Assembly: GCF_023055435.1 (NCBI RefSeq)
Contig: NW_025964372.1
Span: 6,758,001-6,822,000 of the forward strand
Source: Haliotis rufescens
Taxonomy: Eukaryota
DNA length: 64,000 bases
Direction of reading: 5' to 3'
Part shown: in pieces, positions 11,342 to 54,090 of the stretch
How the letters are laid out: each line of letters begins with the position of its first letter
How positions within the stretch are numbered: the first letter of the stretch is position 1
Notes under the pieces: generated by a model
What the model saw: only the letters and a program-made list of their open reading frames with translations
Databases searched by the model: none
What the model was told of the DNA's origin: nothing
Translations under genes and position numbers: made by a program

Positions 11342-11603
11342 ATTTGTTTGTTTGTTTTTTGTTTAACGCCGCACTCAGCAATATTCCAGCTATATGACGG
11401 CGGTCTGTAAATAATCGAGCCTGGAACAGACAATCCAGTGATTGAGATCATGAGCATCGATCCACGCAATTGTGATACGATGACATGCATCAACCAAGTC
11501 AGCGAGCCTGACCCCGTTCGTCGCCTCTTATGACAAGCATAGTCGTCTTTTACAGCAAGCATGGGTTGCTGAAGACCTATTCTACCCCGGGTCTTTACGG
11601 GTC
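11342..11603 (-). mobile_element. Family A short retroposon (GACCCG head, (AAAC)n tail), inserted in GPCR pseudogene
   Basis: Full-length copy. TSD TGTTGGGTCA at 11331-11340 and 11604-11613. Confidence 0.9.
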
Positions 11604-14377: not shown

Positions 14378-15485
14378 ATGCAACGGCAAAATGAAAATGA
14401 CAGATGGAGAGCCATGGGAATTCTGGAATCCGGTACCTCGCAGCGTGATGTCGCAAGTCATTTCAACAACGAGAGGAACGCCATATGGTATTTATGGCGA
14501 CGTGATCAACCACCACCACCACGTCAGGTGCCTTCCCCGTATTGGCCGTCTCCCGGGAACCACTCATCGGCAAGACATATGCATTAGAGCTACGCATCTC
14601 CAACACAGGTTCCAGACAGCAACTCTCTCAGCCGACCCGTGAAGATCCGGGTTAGAATAGGTCTTCAGCAACCCATGCTTGTCGTAACAGGCGACTATGC
14701 TTGTCGTGAGAGGCGACTAACGGGATCGGGTGGTCAGGTTTGCTGACTTGGTTGGTGCATGTAATCGTATCGCAATTGCGTAGATCGATGTTCATGACGT
14801 CCATGATTGTCTCGTCCAGACTCGATTATTTACAGACCCCCGTCATATAGCAGGAATATTGCGGAGCGCGGCATTAAACAACAAACAAACAAACAAAAAC
14901 AAACAAACAAACATATAGATTGGAACTACGCATCTTCAACACAGGTTCCAGACAGCAAATCACAGTCCGTACCATACCGGGCAACAGAGTCGTACCTGCG
15001 GGAACCGTCCTGGTGATATCTACGCATCTAGGGCATCCGTGCGAGGCGCCCAGCCAGAAGGCCAATCCTGACGGCAGAATGTCAACGTCAACGTCCCCGT
15101 CCCTAGTGATGCAGACAACACCTACGGTAGTCAGCACGTCAGGGGAGAAGGATCATCTGAACTGACGAGTTATATTACAGCATGACACGTGTATACAGGC
15201 GTCGAGATTCCTGAAGGCGATCGCCCTGGGGATGGTGGCGTTATGATTTGGAATGGAATAACCGCTCCAGGAAGGTTCAAATGATTGTGATTGATGGAAA
15301 TTTAATTTACCGGGATGAGATTTCTGCAAACGGCAATTTTACCGTTTTTGCAAAAACCATGTAATAACATTCCGGCACAATAACACCACAATGATGTTGG
15401 AGCTGTGCAGCAGTATCTGAACAATGTGTATCCCTGACCTGCAAAATGTCAAGTCATCAATCGAACATACCTAGCATGGAACTCG
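14378..15485 (+). mobile_element. Decayed Tc1-family (DD34E) transposase
   Basis: Colinear but frameshifted motifs: N-terminal HTH (RWRAMGILESGTSQRDVASHF), PRIGR.PGTTHRQD, GIRARRPARRPILT, GDGGVMIWNGI, IDGNL.YRDEI, FRHNN (FQHDN-like) and a degraded WPAKSPDLNPIEH. Confidence 0.85.
14634..14910 (+). mobile_element. Family A retroposon inserted in Tc1 remnant
   Basis: Full-length copy with a duplicated hairpin module. Confidence 0.9.
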
Positions 15486-25772: not shown

Positions 25773-27129
25773 AATTAAAACAGACATAACTTGTCTGCTA
25801 GCTGAGAACTTACGATCTGTCTAGCAATGTATGGTTACAGACATTACAACGTCACAGTTTCGCCGACTACAATGTCTGGAATTGGTCGCAACCAGAAACC
25901 AGACCAAAGAGCGTAGTTCCTCTGTGAGCTCAAGGAGCAGGTTGAGACGTTCTGGGCAATAGCTGCCCCACTTTAACATGTTCGTATTAACCTCACAGCT
26001 CCTTAGAACACCCAGTCTCGCCCAGCGCCGATAAACCTGGCGTCTATTTCATTTGATATATCCCATGGTGGTTGTCATTTGACCCCTCAAGACATCTCCT
26101 TTGATTCAAGGAACTTCCTTCCACGCTTTTAAGCCGCATATTTTCCACGGAAACAGGGTCCATTTCGAGACATCTTCAAGAACAAAATAGAATATAAGTT
26201 GTTTTTCCAGGAAATTGAAAAAGAAATATAATGCACATGTTTTGATGTTCAAGGAGAATTCATTCGGAAACCCATTAAGGCCGTTGATTTGATATCCCCT
26301 TATTACCTAAAACAACTTAAGCAGTTTTTCTTTGTTTTGCAAAAGCCCATAATAGCTTTCGTCACGAGTGGAGTCATGACAATAACGCATGCAAAAAACT
26401 AATATTGATGACCACATGTACTTTTAGTTTTGAATTTATAATTCGATAATGCCTCACATAATCGAAATACAGAGTGAACCTTCAACTTTGATAAATACAA
26501 AAAACAATTGTTATGGTACGATTTTGTCTCCCGTTTCTAAAAATAGGTTCGTACCAGCAGCAAAGCACAAGAAATCGCAACAGAATACCACTTCGTGATG
26601 CCAAAGAAGAATTCTGAAATTTAATAGGATTGACAAGAATTTTGGGGAAGGATTGGGTAAAAAAGCGGATACTATTATTACAAAACGCGTTTGAAATTCG
26701 ATGCCCAATTCGTATCTAAGCCACTACATCATCGCCCTTGCAAGTAAGGTCACAATGACCTTGTAATGCGCTACATTCTGATCGTAGCATCGAGTATCGT
26801 CCCAAAGGCCTTCTCAGCCCCAGTGCATATCCACAGCTATATCAACCATGCCCACCACAATCCAATTAATCTAAAGCATTACTATCAAACATCAACCGAA
26901 TGACATAAAATATGACGACCGTCAAAAGCTAATGTATGTCTTTTGTGCATGACTTTGATTGTAGCTGAGATATTTGCACTGAATCCCTTTCTCAACAGCC
27001 ATGCAAACAAAGAGTTCGGCCTATCAATAAGCCCGTGTTTATCTATGTACTCTGTAATTATCGATGTCTATGACTGATGAAAGGAACAACGTTCACAATC
27101 CATCATTATTACTTTATTGATGAGGGTTG

Positions 27130-30100
27130 TAGTGTCCTGATAGCTATTCTGTTGTAGCGAGACGCTCTTCTGTTGTAGCGAGACGTTCTCCTCTTGTAGC
27201 GAATTGTTGTTCTGGTGTAGCGTGACGTTCTTCTGTTGAAGCGACATGTTGTTCTGTTGTAGCGAGACGATGTTCTGTAGTGTAGTGCCTGGTGTGTAGT
27301 GCCTGGTGTGTAGTGCCTGGTGTGTAATGCCTGGTGTGTAGTGCCTGGTGTGTAGTTCCTGGTGTGTAGTGCCTGGTGTGTAGTTCCTGGTGTGTTGTGC
27401 CTTGTGTGTAGTTCCTGGTGTGTAGTGCCTGGTGTGTAGTGCCTGGTCTGTAGTGTCTGGTGTGTAGTGCCTGGTGTGCAGTGTCTGGTGTTTAGTCCCT
27501 GGTGTGTAGTGTCTGGCGTGTAGACCCTGGTATGTAGTGCCTGGTGTGTAGTTCCTGGTGTGTAGTGTCTGATGTGTAGTGTCTGGTGTGTAGTGTCCTT
27601 TGTGTAGTGTCTGATGTGTACTATCTGGGTTGTAGTGACTGGTGTGTAGTGCCTGGTGTGTAGTGCTTGGTGTGTAGTGCCTGGTGTGTAGTCCCTGTTG
27701 TGTAGTGTCTGGTGTGTCTGGTGTGTAGTGCCTGGTGTGTAGTCCATGGTGTGTAGTTCTTGGTGTTTAGTATCTGGTGTGTAGTGCCGGGTGTGTAGTG
27801 CCTGGTGTGTAGTGCCTGGTGTGTAGTGCCTGGTGTGTCGTGTCTGGTGTGTAGTGCCTGGTGTGCAGTGCCTGTTGTGTAGTGTCTGATGTGTAGTGTC
27901 TGGTGTGTAGTGTCTGGTATGTAGTCCCTGGTGTGTAGTGCCTGGTGTGCAGTACCTGGTGTGTATTGTCGGATGTGAAGTGTCGGATGTGTAGTGCCTG
28001 GTGCGTAGTGCCTGGTGTGTAGTGCCTGGTGTGTAGTGCCTGGTATGTAGTGCCTGGTGTGTAGTGCCTTGTGTTTAGTGCCTGGTGTGTAATGCCTGGT
28101 GTTTCTGGTGTGTAGTGTCTGGTGTGTAGTGTTGGGTGTTTCTGGTGTGTAGTGCCTGGTGTGTAGTGCCTTGTATGTAGTGCCTGGTGTGTAGTGCCTT
28201 GTGTTTAGTGCCTGGTGTGTAATGCCTGGTGTTTCTGGTGTGTATTGTCTTGTGTGTAGTGTCGGGTTTGTAGTGTTGGGTGTTTCAGTGTGAAGTGCCT
28301 GGTGTGTAGTGTCTGGTGTGTAGTGTCTGGTGTGTAGTGCCTGTTGTGTAGTGTCTGGTGTGTAGTGTCTGGTGTGTGGTGTCTGGTGTGTAGTATCTGG
28401 TGTGTAGTGTCTGGTGTGTAGTGCCTTGTGTTTAGTGCCTGTTGTGTAGTGTCTGATGTGTAGTGTCTGGTGTATAGTGCTTGTTGTGTAGTGTCTGGTG
28501 TGTAGTGTCTGGTGTGTAGTGGCTGGTGTGAAGTGCCTGGTGTGTAGTGTCTGGTGTCTAGTGTCTGGTGAGTGGTGCCTGTTGTATAGTGTCTGGTGTG
28601 TAGTGCCTGTTGTGTACTATCTGGGTGGTAGTGTCTGGTGTGTGGTGTCTGGTGTGTAGTGCATGGTGTATAGTGCCTGGTGTTTAGTGCCTGGTGTGTA
28701 GTGCCTGGTGTGTAGTGCCTGGTGTGTAGTCACTGGTGTGTAGTGCCTCGTGTGTAGTGCCTGGTGTGTAGTGCCCGGTGTGCAGTGCCTTGTGTTTAGT
28801 GCCTGGTGTGTAGTGCCTGGTGTGTAGTGCCTTGTGTTTAGTGCCTGGTGTGTAATGCCTGGTGTGTCTGGTGTGTAGTGTGTGGTGTGTAGTGTCGGGT
28901 GATTCTGGTGTGTGGTGTCTGGTGTGTAGTGTCTTGTGTGTAGTGTCGGGTTTGTAGTGTCGGGTGTTTCAGTGTGAAGTACCTGGTGTGTAGTGTCTGG
29001 TGTGTAGTGTCTGGTGTGTAGTGCCTGTTGTGTAGTGTCAGGTGTGTAGTGTCTGGTGTGTGGTGTCTGGTGTGTAGTGTCTGGTGTGTAGTGTCTGGTG
29101 TGTAGTGCCTGGTGTTTAGTGCCTGTCGTGTAGTGTCTGATGTGTAGTGTCTGGTGTATAGTGCCTGTTGTGTAGTGTCTGGTGTGTAGTGTCTGGTGTG
29201 TAGTGGCTGGTGTGAAGTGCCTGGTGTGTAGTGTCTGGTGTGTAGTGTCTGGTGTGTGGTGCTTGTTGTATAGTGCCTGGTGTGTAGTGCCTTGTGTTTA
29301 GTGCCTGGTGTGTCTGGTGTGTAGTGTCGGGTGATTCTCGTGTGTAGTGTCTGGTATGTGGTGTCTACTGTGTAGTGTCGGGTTTGTAGTGTCGGGTGTT
29401 TCAGTGTGAAGTGCCTGGTGTTTAGTGTCTGGTGTGTAGTGTCTGGTGTGTAGTGCCTGTTGTGTAGTGTCTGGTATATAGTGTCTGGTGTGTGGCGTCT
29501 GGTGTGTAGTGTCTGGTGTGTAGTGTCTGGTGTGTAGTGCCTGGTGTTTAGTGCCTGTCGTGTAGTGTCTGATGTGTAGTGTCTGGTGTATAGTGCCTGG
29601 TGTGTAGTGTCTGGTGTGTAGTGTCTGCTGGTAGTGTCTGCTGTGAAGTGCCTGGTGTGTAGTGTCTGCAGTGTAGTGTCTGGTGTGTGGTGCCTGTTGT
29701 ATAGTGTCTGGTGTGTAGTGTCTGGGTTGTAGTGTCTGGTGTGTGGTGTGTAGTGTCTGATGTCTAGTGTCTGGTGTATAGTGCCTGTTGTGTAGTGTCT
29801 GGTGTGTAGTGTTTGGTGTGTAGTGTCTGGTGTGAAGTGCCTGGTGTGTAGTGTCTGGTGTGTAGTGTCTGATGTGTAGTGTCTGATCTATAGTGTCTGG
29901 TGTGTAGTGGCTAGTGTGAAGTGCCTGGTGTGTAGTGTCTGGTGTGTAGTGTCTGGTGTGTGGTGTCTGGTGTGTAGTGTCTGATGTGTAGTGTCTGATC
30001 TATAGTGTCTGGTGTGTCTGGTGTGTAGTGCCTGTCGTGTAGTGTCTGATGTGTAGTGTCTGGTGTGTAGTGTTTGGTGTGTAGTGTCTGATGTGTAGTG

Positions 30101-33100
30101 CCTGGTGTTTAGTGCCTGTCGTGTAGTGTCTGATGTGTAGTGTCTGGTGTATAGTGCCTGTTGTGTAGTGTCTGGTGTGTAGTGTCTGGCGTGTAGTGGC
30201 TGGTGTGAAGTGCCTGGTGTGTAGTGTCTGATGTATAGTGTCTGGTGTGTAGTGGCTGGTGTGAAGTGCCTGGTGTGTAGTGTCTGGTGTGCAGTGGCTG
30301 GTGTGAAGTGCCTGGTGTGTAGTGTCTGATGTGTAGTGTCTGGGTTGTAGTGGTGTCTGATGTGTAGTGTCTAGTGTGTAGTCCATGGTGTGTGGTGTCT
30401 GATGTGTAGTGCCTGGTGTGCAGTGTCTGATGTGTAGTGTCTGGTGTGTGGTGTCTGGTGTGTAGTGCCTGGTGTGTAGTGTCTGGTGTGTAGTGCCTGG
30501 TGTGTAGTGTCTGATGTGTAGTGTCTGGTGTATAGTGCCTGTTGTGTAGTGTCTAGTGTGTAGTGTCTGGTGTGTAGTGGCTGGTGTGAAGTGCCTGGTG
30601 TGTAGTGTCTGGTGTCTAGTGTCTGGTGTGTGGTGCCTGTTGTATAGTGTCTGGTGTGTAGTGCCTGTTGTGTACTATCTGGGTGGTAGTGTCTGGTGTG
30701 TAGTGTCTGGTGTGTAGTGCATGGTGTATAGTGCCTGGTGTGTAGTGCCTGGTGTGTAGTGCCTGGTGTGTAGTGCCTGGTGTGTAGTCCCTGGTGTGTA
30801 GTGCCTCGTGTGTAGTGCCTGGTGTGTAGTGCCCGGTGTGTAGTGCCTTGTGTTAAGTGCCTGGTGTGTAGTGCCTGGTGTGTAGTGCCTTGTGTTTAGT
30901 GCCTAGTGTGTAATGCCTGGTGTGTCTGGTGTGTAGTGTCTCGTGTGTAGTGTGTGGTGTGTAGTGTCGGGTGATTCTGGTGTGTGGTGTCTGGTGTGTA
31001 GTGTTGGGTGTTTCTGGTGTGTAGTGCCTGGTGTGTAGTGCCTTGTATGTAGTGCCTGGTGTGTAGTGCCTTGTGTTTAGTGCCTGGTGTGTAATGCCTG
31101 GTGTTTCTGGTGTGTATTGTCTTGTGTGTAGTGTCGGGTTTGTAGTGTTGGGTGTTTCAGTGTGAAGTGCCTGGTGTGTAGTGTCTGGTGTGTAGTGTCT
31201 GGTGTGTAGTGCCTGTTGTGTAGTGTCTGGTGTGTAGTGTCTGGGTTGTAGTGTCTGGTGTGTGGTGTGTAGTGTCTGATGTGTAGTGTCTGGTGTATAG
31301 TGCCTGTTGTGTAGTGTCTGGTGTGTAGTGTTTGGTGTGTAGTGTCTGGTGTGAAGTGCCTGGTGTGTAGTGTCTGGTGTGTAGTGTCTGTTGTATAGTG
31401 TCTGGTGTGTAGTGTCTGGGTTGTAGTGTCTGGTGTGTGGTGTGTAGTGTCTGATGTGTAGTGTCTGGTGTATAGTGCCTGTTGTGTAGTGTCTGGTGTG
31501 TAGTGTTTGGTGTGTAGTGTCTGGTGTGAAGTGCCTGGTGTGTAGTGTCTGGTGTGTAGTGTCTGGTGTGTAGTGTCTGGTGTGTGGTGTCTGGTGTGTA
31601 GTGTCTGATGTGTAGTGTCTGGTGTGTAGTGTCTGGTGTGTAGTGCCTGGTGTTTAGTGCCTGTCGTGTAGTGTCTGATGTGTAGTGTCTGGTGTATAGT
31701 GCCTGTTGTGTAGTGTCTGGTGTGTAGTGGCTGGTGTGAAGTGCCTGGTGTGTAGTGTCTGATGTGTAGTGTCTGGTGTGTAGTGGCTGGTGTGAAGTGC
31801 CTGGTGTGTAGTGTCTGGTGTGTAGTGTCTGGTGTGAAGTGCCTGGTGTGTAGTGTCTGATGTGTAGTGTCTGGGTTGTAGTGGTGTCTGATGTGTAGTG
31901 TCTAGTGTGTAGTCCCTGGTATGTGGTGTCTGATGTGTAGTGCCTGGTGTGCAGTGTCTGATGTGTAGTGTCTGGTGTGTGGTGTCTGGTGTGTTGTGTC
32001 TGGTGTGTAGTGCCTGGTGTTTAGTGTCTGGGTTGTAGTGCCTGGTGTGTAGTGTCTGGTGTGTAGTGCCTGGTGTGTAGTGTCTGATGTGTAGTGTCCT
32101 GTGTGTAGTGCCTTGTGTGTAGTGTCCTGTGTGAAGTGTCTGGTGTGTAGTGTCTGATCTGTAGTGTCTGGTGTGTAGTGCCTGGTGTGTAGTGTCTGGT
32201 GTGTGGTGTCTGGTGTGTAGTGTCTAGTGTGAAGTGCCTGGTGTGTATTGTCTGGTGTGTAGTGTCTGGGTTGTAGTGTCTGGTGTGTGGTGTCTGGTGT
32301 GTAGTGTCTGATGTGTAGTGTCTGGTGTATAGTGCCTGTTGTGTAGTGTCTGGTGTGTAGTGTCTGGTGTGTAGTGTCTGGTGTGTAGTGCCTGTTGTGT
32401 AGTGTCTGGTGTGTAGTGTCTGATCTGTAGTGTCTGGTGTGTAGTGCCTGGTGTGTAGTGTCTGGTGTGTAGTGTGTAGTGCTTGGTGTGTAGTGTCTGG
32501 TGTGTAGTGCCTTGTGTGTAGTGCCTGTTGTGTAGTGTCTGGTGTGTAGTGTCTGATGTGTAGTGTCTGGTGTGTAGTGTCTGGTGTGTAGTGCCTGGTG
32601 TTTAGTGCCTGTCGTGTAGTGTCTGATGTGTAGTGTCTGGTGTATAGTGCCTGTTGTGTAGTGTCTGGTGTGTAGTGGCTGGTGTGAAGTGCCTGGTGTG
32701 TAGTGTCTGATGTGTAGTGTCTGGTGTGTAGTGGCTGGTGTGAAGTGCCTGGTGTGTAGTGTCTGGTGTGTAGTGTCTGGTGTGAAGTGCCTGGTGTGTA
32801 GTGTCTGATGTGTAGTGTCTGGGTTGTAGTGGTGTCTGATGTGTAGTGTCTAGTGTGTAGTCCCTGGTATGTGGTGTCTGATGTGTAGTGCCTGGTGTGC
32901 AGTGTCTGATGTGTAGTGTCTGGTGTGTGGTGTCTGGTGTGTTGTGTCTGGTGTGTAGTGCCTGGTGTTTAGTGTCTGGGTTGTAGTGCCTGGTGTGTAG
33001 TGTCTGGTGTGTAGTGCCTGGTGTGTAGTGTCTGATGTGTAGTGTCCTGTGTGTAGTGCCTTGTGTGTAGTGTCCTGTGTGAAGTGTCTGGTGTGTAGTG

Positions 33101-34028
33101 TCTGATCTGTAGTGTCTGGTGTGTAGTGCCTGGTGTGTAGTGTCTGGTGTGTGGTGTCTGGTGTGTAGTGTCTAGTGTGAAGTGCCTGGTGTGTATTGTC
33201 TGGTGTGTAGTGTCTGGGTTGTAGTGTCTGGTGTGTGGTGTCTGGTGTGTAGTGTCTGATGTGTAGTGTCTGGTGTATAGTGCCTGTTGTGTAGTGTCTG
33301 GTGTGTAGTGTCTGGTGTGTAGTGTCTGGTGTGTAGTGCCTGTTGTGTAGTGTCTGGTGTGTAGTGTCTGATCTGTAGTGTCTGGTGTGTAGTGCCTGGT
33401 GTGTAGTGTCTGGTGTGTAGTGTGTAGTGCTTGGTGTGTAGTGTCTGGTGTGGAGTGCCTTGTGTGTAGTGCCTGTTGTGTAGTGTCTGATGTGAAGTGT
33501 CGGGTGTCTCAGTGTGTACTGTCTAGTGTGTCGTGCCTGGTGTGTAGTGTCTAGTGTGGAGTGCCTGGTGTGTAGTGCCTGGTGTGTAGTGCCTGGTTTG
33601 CAGTGCCTGGTGTGTAGTGTCTGATGTGTAGTGCCTGGTGTGCAGTGTCTGGTGTGTAGTGTCTAGTGTGTAGTCCCTGGTGTGTGGTGTCTGATGTGTA
33701 GTGCCTGGTGTGCAGTGTCTGATGTGTATTGTCTGGTGTGTGGTGTCTGGTGTGTCGTGTCTGATGTGTACTATCAGGGTTGTAGTGGTGTCTGATGTGT
33801 AGTGTCTATTGTGTAGTCCCTGGTGTGAGGTGTCTGATGTGTAGTACCTGATGTCTACTATCTGGGTTGTAGTGGTGTCTGATTCGTAGTGTCTAGTGTG
33901 TAGTGCCTGGTGTGCAGTGTCTGATGTGTATTGTCTGGTGTGTGGTGTCTGGTGTGTAGTGTCTGATGTGTACTATCTGGGTTGTAGTGGTGTCTGATGT
34001 GTAGTGTCTAGTGTGTAGTGCCTGGTGT
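27130..34028. repeat. ~6.8-kb satellite of 14-bp units (GCCTGGTGTGTAGT / GTCTGGTGTGTAGT), preceded by a short 21-bp repeat
   Basis: Roughly 480 units with higher-order duplications, inside intron 2 of the GLIPR2-like gene. Confidence 0.98.
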
Positions 34029-43549: not shown

Positions 43550-43818
43550 GACCCGTTAAGATCCGGGGTAGAATAGGTCTTCAGCAACCCATGCTTGCCG
43601 TAAAAGGCGTCCATGCTTGTCGAAAGAGGCGACTAACGGGATCGGGTGGTCAGACATGGTTGATGCATGTCATGGTATCCCTATTGCATTGATTGTTGCT
43701 CATAATGTCAATCGATGGATTGTCTTGTCCAGACTCGATTATTTACAGACCGCTGTCACATAGCTGGAATAATGCTGAGTGCGGCGTTAAGCAACAAACA
43801 AACAAACAAACAAACAAA
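43550..43818 (+). mobile_element. Family A retroposon
   Basis: TSD CCACAATCAAGG(A) at 43539 and 43819. Confidence 0.92.
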
Positions 43819-50925: not shown

Positions 50926-52024
50926 AGTGAGACAAACGCTGACTGTCACTGCGACAAGCGTTCAGTCCTTTGGGTAAAACCCCCCAATGATTTTGCACTT
51001 AAATATATGAAAGTACTCGAGAGAGTTCATTGAAAACTTTGAACCACTTCAAAAATATTTGTCTTAATTGCTTAATTGTTGGAATAATTTCACCGCAAAT
51101 CGACAGAGTGACATGTTCGGAACACAAAAGGTTTATTTTGTAAAACGTTCTCTGAAGATGGACTGTCGATGTGTGCGATAGTCCACTCTTGTTTTAGCAC
51201 AAAAAGGAAGGGCTGGAAAGGCAAAGGTGTAAGCTAGGCTAGATATAGGCTGGTGGACACGCTTGCCGTGGGAACATGATCTGTACCTTTATCATGTCTT
51301 ATAATTGGGTAGTATAACAACAGCAACGTTATAACATCAATCATCATCATCATCATCATCATTATCATTATTATTATTATAGATTTGTCGTCCCCCTCCA
51401 CCCAAAAGGCATCGGCAGCAGCTCTTAGCACACGTCACAGAAATGATCTCTTTATGGCCGTTGTCGTGTTTGTCTATTTCTTCAGCTGACCAATCATCAT
51501 ATTTATGATCTCAGTCAAAGAGCTACACTTCCTGATAGTTAGGCCACATGTTGTTTTCTTGTTTCATCGTCTAGCGATCAAAATAATCGGATTTCTATTC
51601 AGATGTTAGCATGCTAGATTCGGATCCGTTGTCAGCATTTTTTCGTTTTATTTATTTTTCCGAAGTTGCACTTTTTGATGTAACCCGCTGTGATGACCAA
51701 AAATACCTTTCGTGACTTTGCAATGTTTTGCAGAGGAGGGACCTTCTTGTGCAACTGTGAATTTAGGTTGGAGGGAAATAGAAACGGCAAAAAAATAACT
51801 AAAAATTGACCTTCCCATTATATTTTAAGTGAGGAGAAACAATATTTTATGTTTTGTTAGAAAACGGCTTGATTGCTTGCCATCTCTTGGTGAGGCAGCG
51901 TACTATATGTCCATTTTATTATGATAAAACACCATGGACTCGTTGTCGTACGTTTGTTTTGGATGTGACCTTGCCCTGTCTTTCTTTTTCACCAATTACA
52001 TTACAATTAGAGCTCATCTCACGC

Positions 52025-52285
52025 GACCCGTGAATATCCGGGGTAGAATGGGTCTTCAGCAACCAATGCTTGCCGTAAAAGGCGACTATGCTTGTCGTAT
52101 GAAGCGACTAACGGGACCGGGTGGTCAGGCTCGCTGACTTGGTTGATGCATGTCATCGATCCCAATTGCGTGGATCGATGCTCATGATATTTATCACTGG
52201 ATTGTCTGGTCCAGACTCGATTATGTACAAACCGCCGTCATATAGCTGGAATATTGCTGAGTGCGGCGTTAAACAACAAACCAAA
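52025..52285 (+). mobile_element. Family A retroposon
   Basis: TSD TCATCTCACGC at 52014-52024 and 52286-52296. The element begins exactly at GACCCG. Confidence 0.93.
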
Positions 52286-54090
52286 TCATCTCACGCCTCA
52301 GTGTAATTTGATTGGGCGCTATTTTTATCACCGTCTCATTCGAATCACCCCCAAAACGAGGCTATGGTAGAGGCGGGATCAACTGTATTGATCATAATAA
52401 AAAGGAGATATAATTCTGTTCTGAATCGAGGATGGGGGTCGATACGTTTGTATCAGTTCGTGTTTAATGCCCAAGCTAACTCTGATCAAAGGATTATATT
52501 CACTACAGATATATTGGTGAATAGGTGAGTGAGTGAGTTTGATTTGACGCCTCGTTTGGCAATATTCCAGATTCACACATTGTACCCTTGCGGGAATCGA
52601 ACTCGGGTCTTCAGCGCGATGAGCTGTAACCAGCATGCTCCGCCACCGCCGAACCACCTCACCGCCTCCAACCATCATCGGTGGCAACATACTAGTGACG
52701 TCAACCCTTACTCGACCGAGACACCGCACTAATCAGGTAAACAAACTGTGAAATGACAAATTAAAATCCAACCCTGTAAACTACAATTTCGAAACCATGC
52801 GATCTTCTAGTTGAGAAACTGCACTATGGAAGTTTACAATTTAAAATCACACGTACACCACTGAAACATACATGCAGAGGAACCACACGACTGAAATCTT
52901 CCAACTGAAAAACCGCAGAATAAAAATCTTCAAACTGTGAGATTCCACTCTATTGAAAATGGAAAGTTGTCATACTTCTCAATTGGATTGTACAAATGAA
53001 GGGGCACAAATTAATTATGACCTAAGGCTATAAATTCAATTCCTTTCGAAGCAAGCCTTATTTTATTGCCATTGGTGATTCTGGGACTTCACTATTCTAC
53101 ACAGGACTTCAAGACCCAACCCTCGACCCGGCAGGTTCTGCTATGTTAAGTCCCGCACACCGAAACACTGACATGCGCGTCTTTCCTCCATGAAGACACG
53201 CGCGCCTTAAAGTTTCCAATCATACACACATTCATTATGAAATTGCCCGTCGCTCAGGGATAATTTTTTAGATTATTATACAAAATTAAATTGTCAAGCT
53301 TCGTCGACGAGGTAAACATGGGTTTGGCTGAAATCAATTCTTTTCGACCATTGCTGTTTTTTTTTATAATACCCTGAGATACAATTTTGCCAAAATTGCC
53401 TGCTTGTCCGATCTGATTGTATGGCGGGTATCTCCAGAAATGGGCTTTTAGTCCATTTGCTGATTTGCCTGAAAACTGCACACTTTAAGTTTAAGATCAT
53501 TTAAGGTTTGAATGGGCAATATTACAGCATACATATATTTGTCACCTTCATTACAATCACTAGCAGAATGATCGTTTTTACACGACACTCATTACTCCAG
53601 GAACATGTTTGTTACCATGAACCTTTTGGTTACTACTTTTCTGGATTGTTTGATTCAGTGGATATAGGGCATTCATCACCACTCGCCACTTTCTGTAACC
53701 TGCAAGAAGACTCGTCCCCCTATCGATGAATGTTATTTGCGAAAATACGACAAACCACGGACTTGTATATATATAGGTCCATGGACAAACCAAAGACGTA
53801 TATAGACAAACCAATCAGAGTGCGCGTATGATTTCAAGTTCTTCGTCAAAGAATCCCTCAGAAATAATTTTTATTTTACATATGTCTTGCATCTAAAAAT
53901 ATACCAAAGACACAGTTAAATGTGTTCACTCAAACTGAGTGCCGATGTGCTTTAAATTGCATCTGAAATATATATAATATATTGGGGAAATGTGTGAACC
54001 ATTGCGCAACGAGTTGACAATTGTTTTAGGTATGCCCGTTTGCGCTAAGACGGAACCCGGTCGCAAAAATTGCCACGAGAGGGGCACGAG

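Follow-up and report, generated by a model that had tools for sequence, protein, structure and literature searches.

The repeat at position 52025 and its copies

The head of the repeat that starts at position 52025 was confirmed, and it is present many times over in the window, which is the whole 64,000-nt stretch of DNA that was analysed. The repeat is SINE-like, with a head of about 70 nt, and its full copies are about 260 bp long, end in a (CAAA/CAAC)n tail and are flanked by target-site duplications (TSDs) of 10-15 bp. A 14-nt head pattern allowing up to two mismatches gave 10 matches in the window against 0.25 expected, and a covariance model located 16 window sites at E≤0.1, including 14 at E<1e-5, in agreement with the at least 13 copies counted in an earlier note on this DNA. 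That note had also described a non-tRNA family lacking Pol III A and B boxes, and indeed no tRNA was found in the window, and matches to the A and B boxes within the element all had one mismatch, with none exact. The copy at 52025 carries one pseudoknot mismatch and a damaged CCC arm. Its features and three further copies in the window are the following (the evidence is given in brackets):

52014-52024, plus strand: 5' target-site duplication of 11 bp (TSD comparison)
52025-52026, plus strand: element start, 1-2 nt 5' of stem P1; G1 is optional in the family (TSD abuts G1 in 16 of 25 TSD-bearing copies)
52027-52042, plus strand: stem P1, CCCG (52027-52030) with CGGG (52039-52042), closing an 8-nt loop (sequence and covariation)
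52031-52038, plus strand: P1 loop, composed of an invariant U (52031) and the 5' arm of the pseudoknot stem (52032-52038) (sequence and covariation)
52043-52050, plus strand: loop L3, a variable spacer and the near-invariant AGAAU(A/U/G) linker (AGAAT invariant in alignments A1 and A2)
52051-52058, plus strand: 3' arm of the pseudoknot stem, 7 bp and a weak eighth pair (pairing tests)
52063-52065, plus strand: 5' arm of stem P3, CCC in the family and CCA in this copy, with its partner at 52113-52115 (weak support)
52068-52088, plus strand: first (duplicated) hairpin unit (5' arm GCCG in 12 of 19 duplicated copies, breaking one stem pair)
52089-52115, plus strand: second hairpin unit, with a GUCG/CGAC stem, a U-A-N-R-A loop and two bulged purines (sequence; loop variants in LINE heads)
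Within 52089-52115, plus strand: UAA followed by the 3' arm of P3
52116-52241, plus strand: SINE body (without match to 7 LINE stretches except for inserted SINE copies)
52242-52273, plus strand: tail in common with the 3' end of an intact host I-group LINE, the likely partner (94% over 32 nt to L382)
52274-52285, plus strand: short (CAAA/CAAC)n terminal repeat
52286-52296, plus strand: 3' target-site duplication
11351-11603, minus strand: further full-length copy with TSD
14634-14889, plus strand: further full-length copy, the nearest to the family majority
43550-43802, plus strand: further full-length copy with TSD

The window also contains, at 27071-33662, an array of about 6.5 kb of short tandem units with long low-complexity open frames on the minus strand.

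A 464-kb sample of the host genome contained 36 heads by the strict pattern and 51 by BLAST, which extrapolates to roughly 100,000 SINE copies in the 1.33-Gb genome. The hairpin unit is doubled in 21 of the 36 heads of this sample, a duplication that had already been seen in many copies. Whole heads in tandem were observed in some repeat copies (L054:1370-1516, L012 and L017), as in two of the viruses described below. Three small-RNA runs yielded 11 reads on the SINE, with starts that do not pile up.

Among 76 SINE heads, 63 were followed by the tail and 25 had a detectable TSD, which ended directly before G1 in 16 copies, overlapped the first 1-3 bases in 5 and ended 1-2 bases earlier in 4; in the unbiased subset of TSD-bearing copies it abutted G1 in 7 of 12. 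The TSDs at 11603, 43550 and 52025, previously cited as clean, all abut the first G. The proposal that all copies start at the same base was correct as to the precision of the 5' ends but not as to the base, since position 1 is G in 23 of 35 unbiased heads and is therefore not fixed. G1 is present in 17 of 21 G19 copies against 6 of 14 T19 copies, which is the reverse of a strict rule of one base before P1. In four metagenome families the base preceding P1 is A (8 of 10 and 3 of 4 copies) or G (12 of 12 and 9 of 11). The elements begin about one base before P1, whatever that base, and these genomic ends, 1-2 nt 5' of P1, were read from DNA copies rather than from mapped RNA ends.

A covarying pseudoknot in the head

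The head is a covarying RNA fold, in which an H-type pseudoknot is followed by a T-loop-like hairpin. From 5' to 3' it comprises P1 (4-5 bp), an invariant U, a 7-bp stem, a variable spacer, the AGAAU(A) linker, the 3' arm of the stem, a variable P3 and the GUCG/CGAC hairpin. The P1 loop has 8-9 nt and is wholly taken up by the pseudoknot, and the linker spacer reaches 17 nt, and also 50-80 nt, in other families. The AGAAU linker may have an A-minor or docking role. Low-complexity inserts of 50-80 nt between P1 and AGAAUA, with complementary pseudoknot arms kept, were observed in L040, L058, L064, L084, L092 and L285 and in related SINE families.

Only the 3' hairpin was fixed in the scans used for collection, so that the upstream arms were free of selection by the search. 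The hairpin was found at 134 loci, 111 of them with AGAAU(A/U) 5-45 nt upstream, and these 111 loci were clustered blind to the 5' arm into 27 families. In this set, which includes decayed single copies of which about half rank poorly, the 8 nt after the linker pair better with the upstream sequence of their own family than with that of other families (0.646 versus 0.540±0.025, 0 of 20,000 permutations), whereas the next 8 nt after the 3' arm, taken as control, had no own-family pairing preference. Covariation of the pseudoknot arms, which the earlier note had proposed to test, is supported by this permutation test. In 17 sequences hand-picked for short linkers and a visible P1, 89.7% of the cells pair, compared to 64% in shuffled and 38-51% in slid controls, and 7 of the 8 pseudoknot pairs change on both sides. 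A retroelement-only alignment of 19 sequences gave 86.8% pairing versus 76.9%, with 5 of the 8 pairs changing on both sides, and compensated arms were also found in older subfamilies of the same genome. Among 136 pseudoknot cells there were 19 G-U and 0 A-C, so that the pairs are those of the sense-strand RNA.

The eighth pseudoknot pair was formed in just 9 of the 17 sequences, and for this reason the second stem is preferably described as 7 bp with an unpaired U that does not vary. With this correction to its second stem, the H-type pseudoknot postulated earlier is upheld by covariation across 27 families. The CCC/GGG stem (P3) that had been placed around the hairpin was weakly supported (515 of 20,000 permutations), and the hairpin stem itself showed no covariation, although its letters had been fixed by the search patterns. 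Nested folding is not unusually stable (z of -0.2 for the 52025 head and -0.9 for the 14634 head), so the support for the fold comes from covariation and not from energy.

The hairpin loop reads U-A-N-R-A-G-G, and in 37 LINE heads only positions 3 (A/U/C) and 4 (purine) vary, U1 and A5 being fixed by the pattern. T-loops have the consensus U-N-N-R-A with bulged 3' bases, and from its sequence the hairpin loop appears to resemble one. The T-loop has been described as containing a reverse-Hoogsteen U.A pair (PMC12397905). An alternative hairpin register, GYC/GGC, was considered on account of the GCCG variant; GCCG is mostly confined to the first, redundant unit, and the GUCG/CGAC register was kept.

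Host LINEs and viral genomes carrying the fold

Seven prokaryotic matches (GTDB, L282-L288) were rejected as bacterial occurrences; they involve contig ends, host-associated genomes and microsatellites, and look like contamination by eukaryotic repeats. One of these seven stretches carries a LINE ORF1. An ORF1 fragment located behind the head in one contaminant contig was used as query and retrieved 136 host loci; the head was present in 14 of the first 15 LINE loci and in 18 of 20 more picked for diversity, plus a 19th. The host LINEs have two ORFs, with a zinc knuckle in ORF1 and APE, RT and RNase H in ORF2, a layout that places them in the I group; the label Nimb for the partner LINE is based on PMC4758252 and PMC11481361. 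One of them (L382) ends in the tail of the SINE, and this common tail makes the L382-type LINE the likely SINE partner. The earlier suggestion of a motif shared with retrotransposon 5' ends was right: the head stands at the front of host I-group LINEs and is common to published LINE 5' ends.

LINE-A, one type of host LINE, starts without a ribozyme. In 27 of 30 copies the base ahead of P1 is a U, beyond which the flank is random, and one base further upstream G is present in 7 of 30 copies, with no excess. These starts bear on an internal Pol II promoter, which would set the 5' end and leave to the RNA fold a secondary, stabilizing role. In favor of it, the head is located at the extreme 5' end of SINEs and LINEs, starts are purines in most families, the optional extra G of the SINE is what a reverse-transcribed cap gives, and the 77-nt Pr77 segment of L1Tc is both promoter and RNA structure (PMC4758252). 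However, the arm sequences are swapped wholesale with pairing kept, RNA viruses that carry the fold lack a DNA stage, LINE-A starts at U with no upstream excess of G, and no copies of a second type of LINE (LINE-B, below) were found to begin at P1. Starting at U with no additional G also fits poorly with capped initiation by Pol II. A DNA promoter cannot explain the occurrence in RNA viruses or the covariation of the arms, and we consider this explanation very unlikely.

In LINE-B the start lies 59 nt further upstream, at a minimal HDV-like ribozyme, and an intact pseudoknot with its own compensated arms follows directly after it. The three best Rfam matches of this upstream module were all HDV-like families, the best of them at E=0.0033, below gathering level, and P1 with a first G-U pair, P2, P3, L3, P1.1 and the J4/2 cytosine were recognized by eye. 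The last strand of the ribozyme is exact in 849 of 886 LINE-B heads genome-wide, and a genome-wide pattern recovered no LINE-B copy starting at P1 with foreign flank, whereas in the control with the same pattern design 22 of 37 LINE-A copies started at P1. Within LINE-B, therefore, the fold makes no cut at its base, nor do transposable transcripts begin at that point, with the caveat that the putative junction lies inside the P2 helix of the HDV-like ribozyme and could be masked.

LINE-B (for example L366:724-782, L380 and L382) is a young, high-copy I-group LINE with about 850 exact heads, and the ribozyme of about 59 nt at its 5' end is almost devoid of P4. The six ribozyme-bearing clades listed in the text of PMC5786205 do not include Nimb/I-group elements. 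The same 5' boundary of LINE-B was found in contigs of two public runs. The family is dense in a few regions, with some nested copies (C445:31.2-32.1 Mb, C46:5.4-6.5 Mb, C101:8.6-9.0 Mb and C24:10.6-10.7 Mb). In one small-RNA run, 104 reads of a single 31-nt antisense species starting with U lie over the LINE-B pseudoknot (L380:875-905); this species is piRNA-like and, having a single start site, possibly consists of amplified copies. Target-site specificity of LINE-B was discarded, since the shared 59 nt upstream belong to the element and are preceded by random flanks without a nearby tRNA.

Strict scans of IMG/VR gave 7 contigs, and a loop-relaxed scan added one more among 9 new loci. The viral set is composed of six distinct +ssRNA-virus contigs and one 212-kb DNA-virus contig. 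The RNA-virus contigs encode RdRP, S-domain and nodavirus-type or peptidase-A21 capsid domains. Distances were measured for five of these viruses: from the last stop codon to P1 they are 6-101 nt, and from the end of the motif to that of the contig 27-119 nt; in the sixth the fold is likewise in the 3' UTR. Two RNA viruses carry tandem copies of the fold with different arms. A stop-codon read-through pseudoknot was rejected on the basis of the variable distance of 6-101 nt from stop to P1. In the DNA virus (L158:5982-6054) the complete fold is intergenic, between ORFs on the same strand, and its arms are close to those of this SINE. With a model built from retroelement heads only, 7 viral heads scored 37-74 bits, 80 control viral loci gave nothing at E≤1 and hairpin-only chance matches reached at most 24 bits. 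A shared ancestry of viral and retroelement folds is likely. A relaxed viral scan produced chance matches, with the fold in a single, already known one of 120 loci, 80 of which were reused as controls, and no match was obtained in GenBank phages.

These occurrences also bear on the proposal that the fold releases the element from read-through transcripts. Release in itself fits the precise 5' ends, but self-cleavage at the first G, the lead idea of the earlier note, is not supported as the leading explanation in view of LINE-B, where the fold stands behind an HDV-like ribozyme and no copy was found to start at the fold, and of its presence in 3' UTRs of linear RNA viruses. A new self-cleaving ribozyme cutting one or two bases upstream of P1 would account for the precise ends, and the pseudoknot is compact and has unpaired bases that do not vary. 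Many non-LTR elements begin with HDV-like, hammerhead or twister ribozymes (PMC6765202), and a P1 loop that forms a pseudoknot is a feature in common with pistol (PMC4604425). On the other hand, LINE-B retains its HDV-like ribozyme and no copy of it was found to start at P1 (though the site could be masked in the HDV P2), the base at or before the putative cut is not conserved, and efficient cutting would sever the motif and the last 27-119 nt of linear RNA-virus genomes. Such a ribozyme is decidedly unlikely.

Proposed exoribonuclease resistance and comparison with known systems

A single function must suit the 5' ends of SINEs, the 5' UTRs of LINEs, whether these start with a ribozyme or not, and the viral positions in 3' UTRs and between genes. 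The reading that we tentatively favor is that the fold may well be an exoribonuclease-resistant RNA (xrRNA), by which read-through transcripts would be trimmed and protected. The element would be carried by a read-through host transcript, and a 5'-to-3' exonuclease degrading this RNA would be halted at the base of P1. What remained would be a shielded element RNA, precise at its 5' end, that the partner LINE could copy. The ring could be closed by the AGAAU linker, or another strand, docking on the T-loop-like hairpin, and in viruses the fold may serve in the production of subgenomic RNA. The xrRNA is favored by ends that are fixed by their distance to P1, by the tandem 3'-UTR and intergenic placement and by the silence of the fold behind a 5'-OH ribozyme product. 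RNA cut by an HDV ribozyme carries a 5'-OH and would be no substrate for Xrn, which fits the retention of the ribozyme by LINE-B copies.

Several observations count against the xrRNA. xrRNAs are defined by a ring, which a simple H-type pseudoknot does not have to form; in some families the linker accommodates inserts of 50-80 nt; and the architecture is unlike that of class 3. The optional G1 is as a reverse-transcribed cap would give, and the G19/T19 pattern runs contrary to a start at one base before P1. Behind the HDV-like ribozyme, moreover, the fold stays intact although there is no end for it to set; it may have another role in that position. The 165 nt that follow the fold in LINE-B are as conserved as the fold itself (90-95%), so that its retention there is no proof of selection on it.

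This retention directly behind a ribozyme whose product is uncapped would be better explained if the fold bound translation factors or ribosomes in the manner of a 3'CITE or IRES, allowing ORF1 to be translated from uncapped LINE RNA, serving viral translation from the 3' UTR and docking the SINE near nascent LINE protein. The high conservation of the hairpin sequence is as expected of a protein site, 3'CITEs occur in the 3' UTRs of uncapped +ssRNA viruses (PMC12397905) and retroelement ribozymes may double as IRES (PMC6765202). However, a translation element alone leaves the ends one base before P1 unexplained in families without a ribozyme, compensatory changes maintain the fold in SINEs, which are non-coding, and the known 3'CITEs are described in PMC12397905 as specific to plant viruses. 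A translation element is considered unlikely, and a small probability falls to other functions.

Returning to the xrRNA, a fuller form of the proposal, put forward with somewhat more reserve, is that the fold could be a previously unrecognized xrRNA class exchanged among RNA viruses, a large DNA virus and the non-LTR retrotransposons of animals. It would give LINEs and about 100,000 SINE copies per genome their 5' ends through host 5'-3' decay, instead of through a promoter or a ribozyme. In non-LTR elements that are free to insert at any site, full-length RNA with a precise 5' end has been explained so far by internal promoters or self-cleaving ribozymes, and the fold offers a testable third option; if true, it would be a third route to a retrotransposon 5' end and a natural cellular xrRNA. 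Whatever its function, the presence of one covarying fold both at the 5' ends of retrotransposons and in the 3' UTRs of RNA viruses points to an exchange of modules, and the fold would add a structured element of about 75 nt that is absent from Rfam.

The Rfam search proposed earlier gave no gathering-level match in the window or in 10 LINE and virus loci, and relaxed E-values produced only a chance snoRNA fragment on the head and miRNA-type matches away from the motif. No HDV family matched the head even at E≤10, in a search that did detect the HDV-like module upstream in LINE-B. Like the HDV-like ribozymes of R2, RTE and L1Tc, the head is a structured module with which non-LTR elements begin at a precise 5' end (PMC3774820, PMC6765202), and a 5' HDV-like module may also protect uncapped RNA (PMC11331408); unlike them, it lacks P1.1, P3/L3 and the nested double pseudoknot of five helices, and its order of helices cannot be mapped onto theirs. 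An A-rich linker after P1 is found in pistol as well. [quoted passage not shown] The earlier statement that the topology is neither that of pistol nor that of HDV was thus correct.

Class 3 xrRNAs of plant viruses (ST9a, SCNMV and PLRV) halt Xrn1 precisely at the base of P1, have an 8-9 bp pseudoknot and a T-loop, and are located in 3' UTRs and intergenic regions (PMC12397905). In comparison with this description, the head has in common a 5' P1 with a loop that engages a 3' strand in a long pseudoknot, a linker starting with AG before that strand and the 3'-UTR and intergenic placement. Its T-loop-like hairpin and its element ends near the base of P1, read from DNA copies, may be further parallels. 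It differs in having neither P2 nor a J1/2 bulge, in the position of the T-loop-like hairpin, which is 3' of the pseudoknot and not inside the apical loop, in the linker (AGY there, AGAAU here) and in its occurrence in animal retroelements, where resistance is predicted. Coremin, or xrRNA-C, is a small Xrn1-resistant element with a conserved hairpin loop, also reported from tombus-like and noda-like virus genomes (PMC10520033). The head resembles it in being a small element with a conserved hairpin loop, but as described there coremin has a 5' hairpin of 4 bp with a YGAD/YGNNAD loop, a spacer and a second hairpin, whereas in the head it is the 3' domain that consists of the conserved hairpin, with the loop U-A-N-R-A-G-G. 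By the features tested, the fold is not a member of the HDV, pistol, class 3 xrRNA or coremin classes.

The closest published relatives of the element are the LP-SINEs, whose head of about 70 bp is common to the 5' ends of Nimb-17_LMi, I-3_DR and RTE-9_CPB (Matetovici et al. 2016, PMC4758252); locust, zebrafish, turtle and mollusc elements were thereby seen to share it. Abalone families of this type (Hdi/Hmi_LP) have 255 bp (PMC4758252). The features in common are a non-tRNA head of about 70 bp derived from and shared with LINE 5' ends, a length of about 255 bp, variable TSDs, a short tandem-repeat tail and a LINE-related 3' end. The scallop block published as 'Nimb-17 homology' contains, by eye, the same hairpin and linker with different yet complementary pseudoknot arms; a hexamer that reads AATATA in the published elements reads AATATT here. 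Compared by length and head features rather than with the Hdi_LP and Hmi_LP consensus, the element is most likely of the LP-SINE type of Matetovici et al. or a sister to it, and the head sequence as such is already published as the LP-SINE head (PMC4758252). HalSINE1, a MetaSINE with a tRNA head (PMC4824008), was rejected as a different family. In the text of the 2016 paper the head is proposed as a LINE promoter and the parallel with the promoter/ribozyme of L1Tc is mentioned, with no structure given (PMC4758252); the xrRNA proposal is a candidate mechanism for a 70-bp head left without one there. No description of the fold, of its viral occurrence or of a LINE combining ribozyme and fold was found in the literature outside subscription journals, Repbase/Dfam and bioRxiv supplements. 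Beyond the LP-SINE paper, the present analysis adds the covarying pseudoknot, the viral occurrences and a LINE family with an HDV-like ribozyme upstream of the fold.
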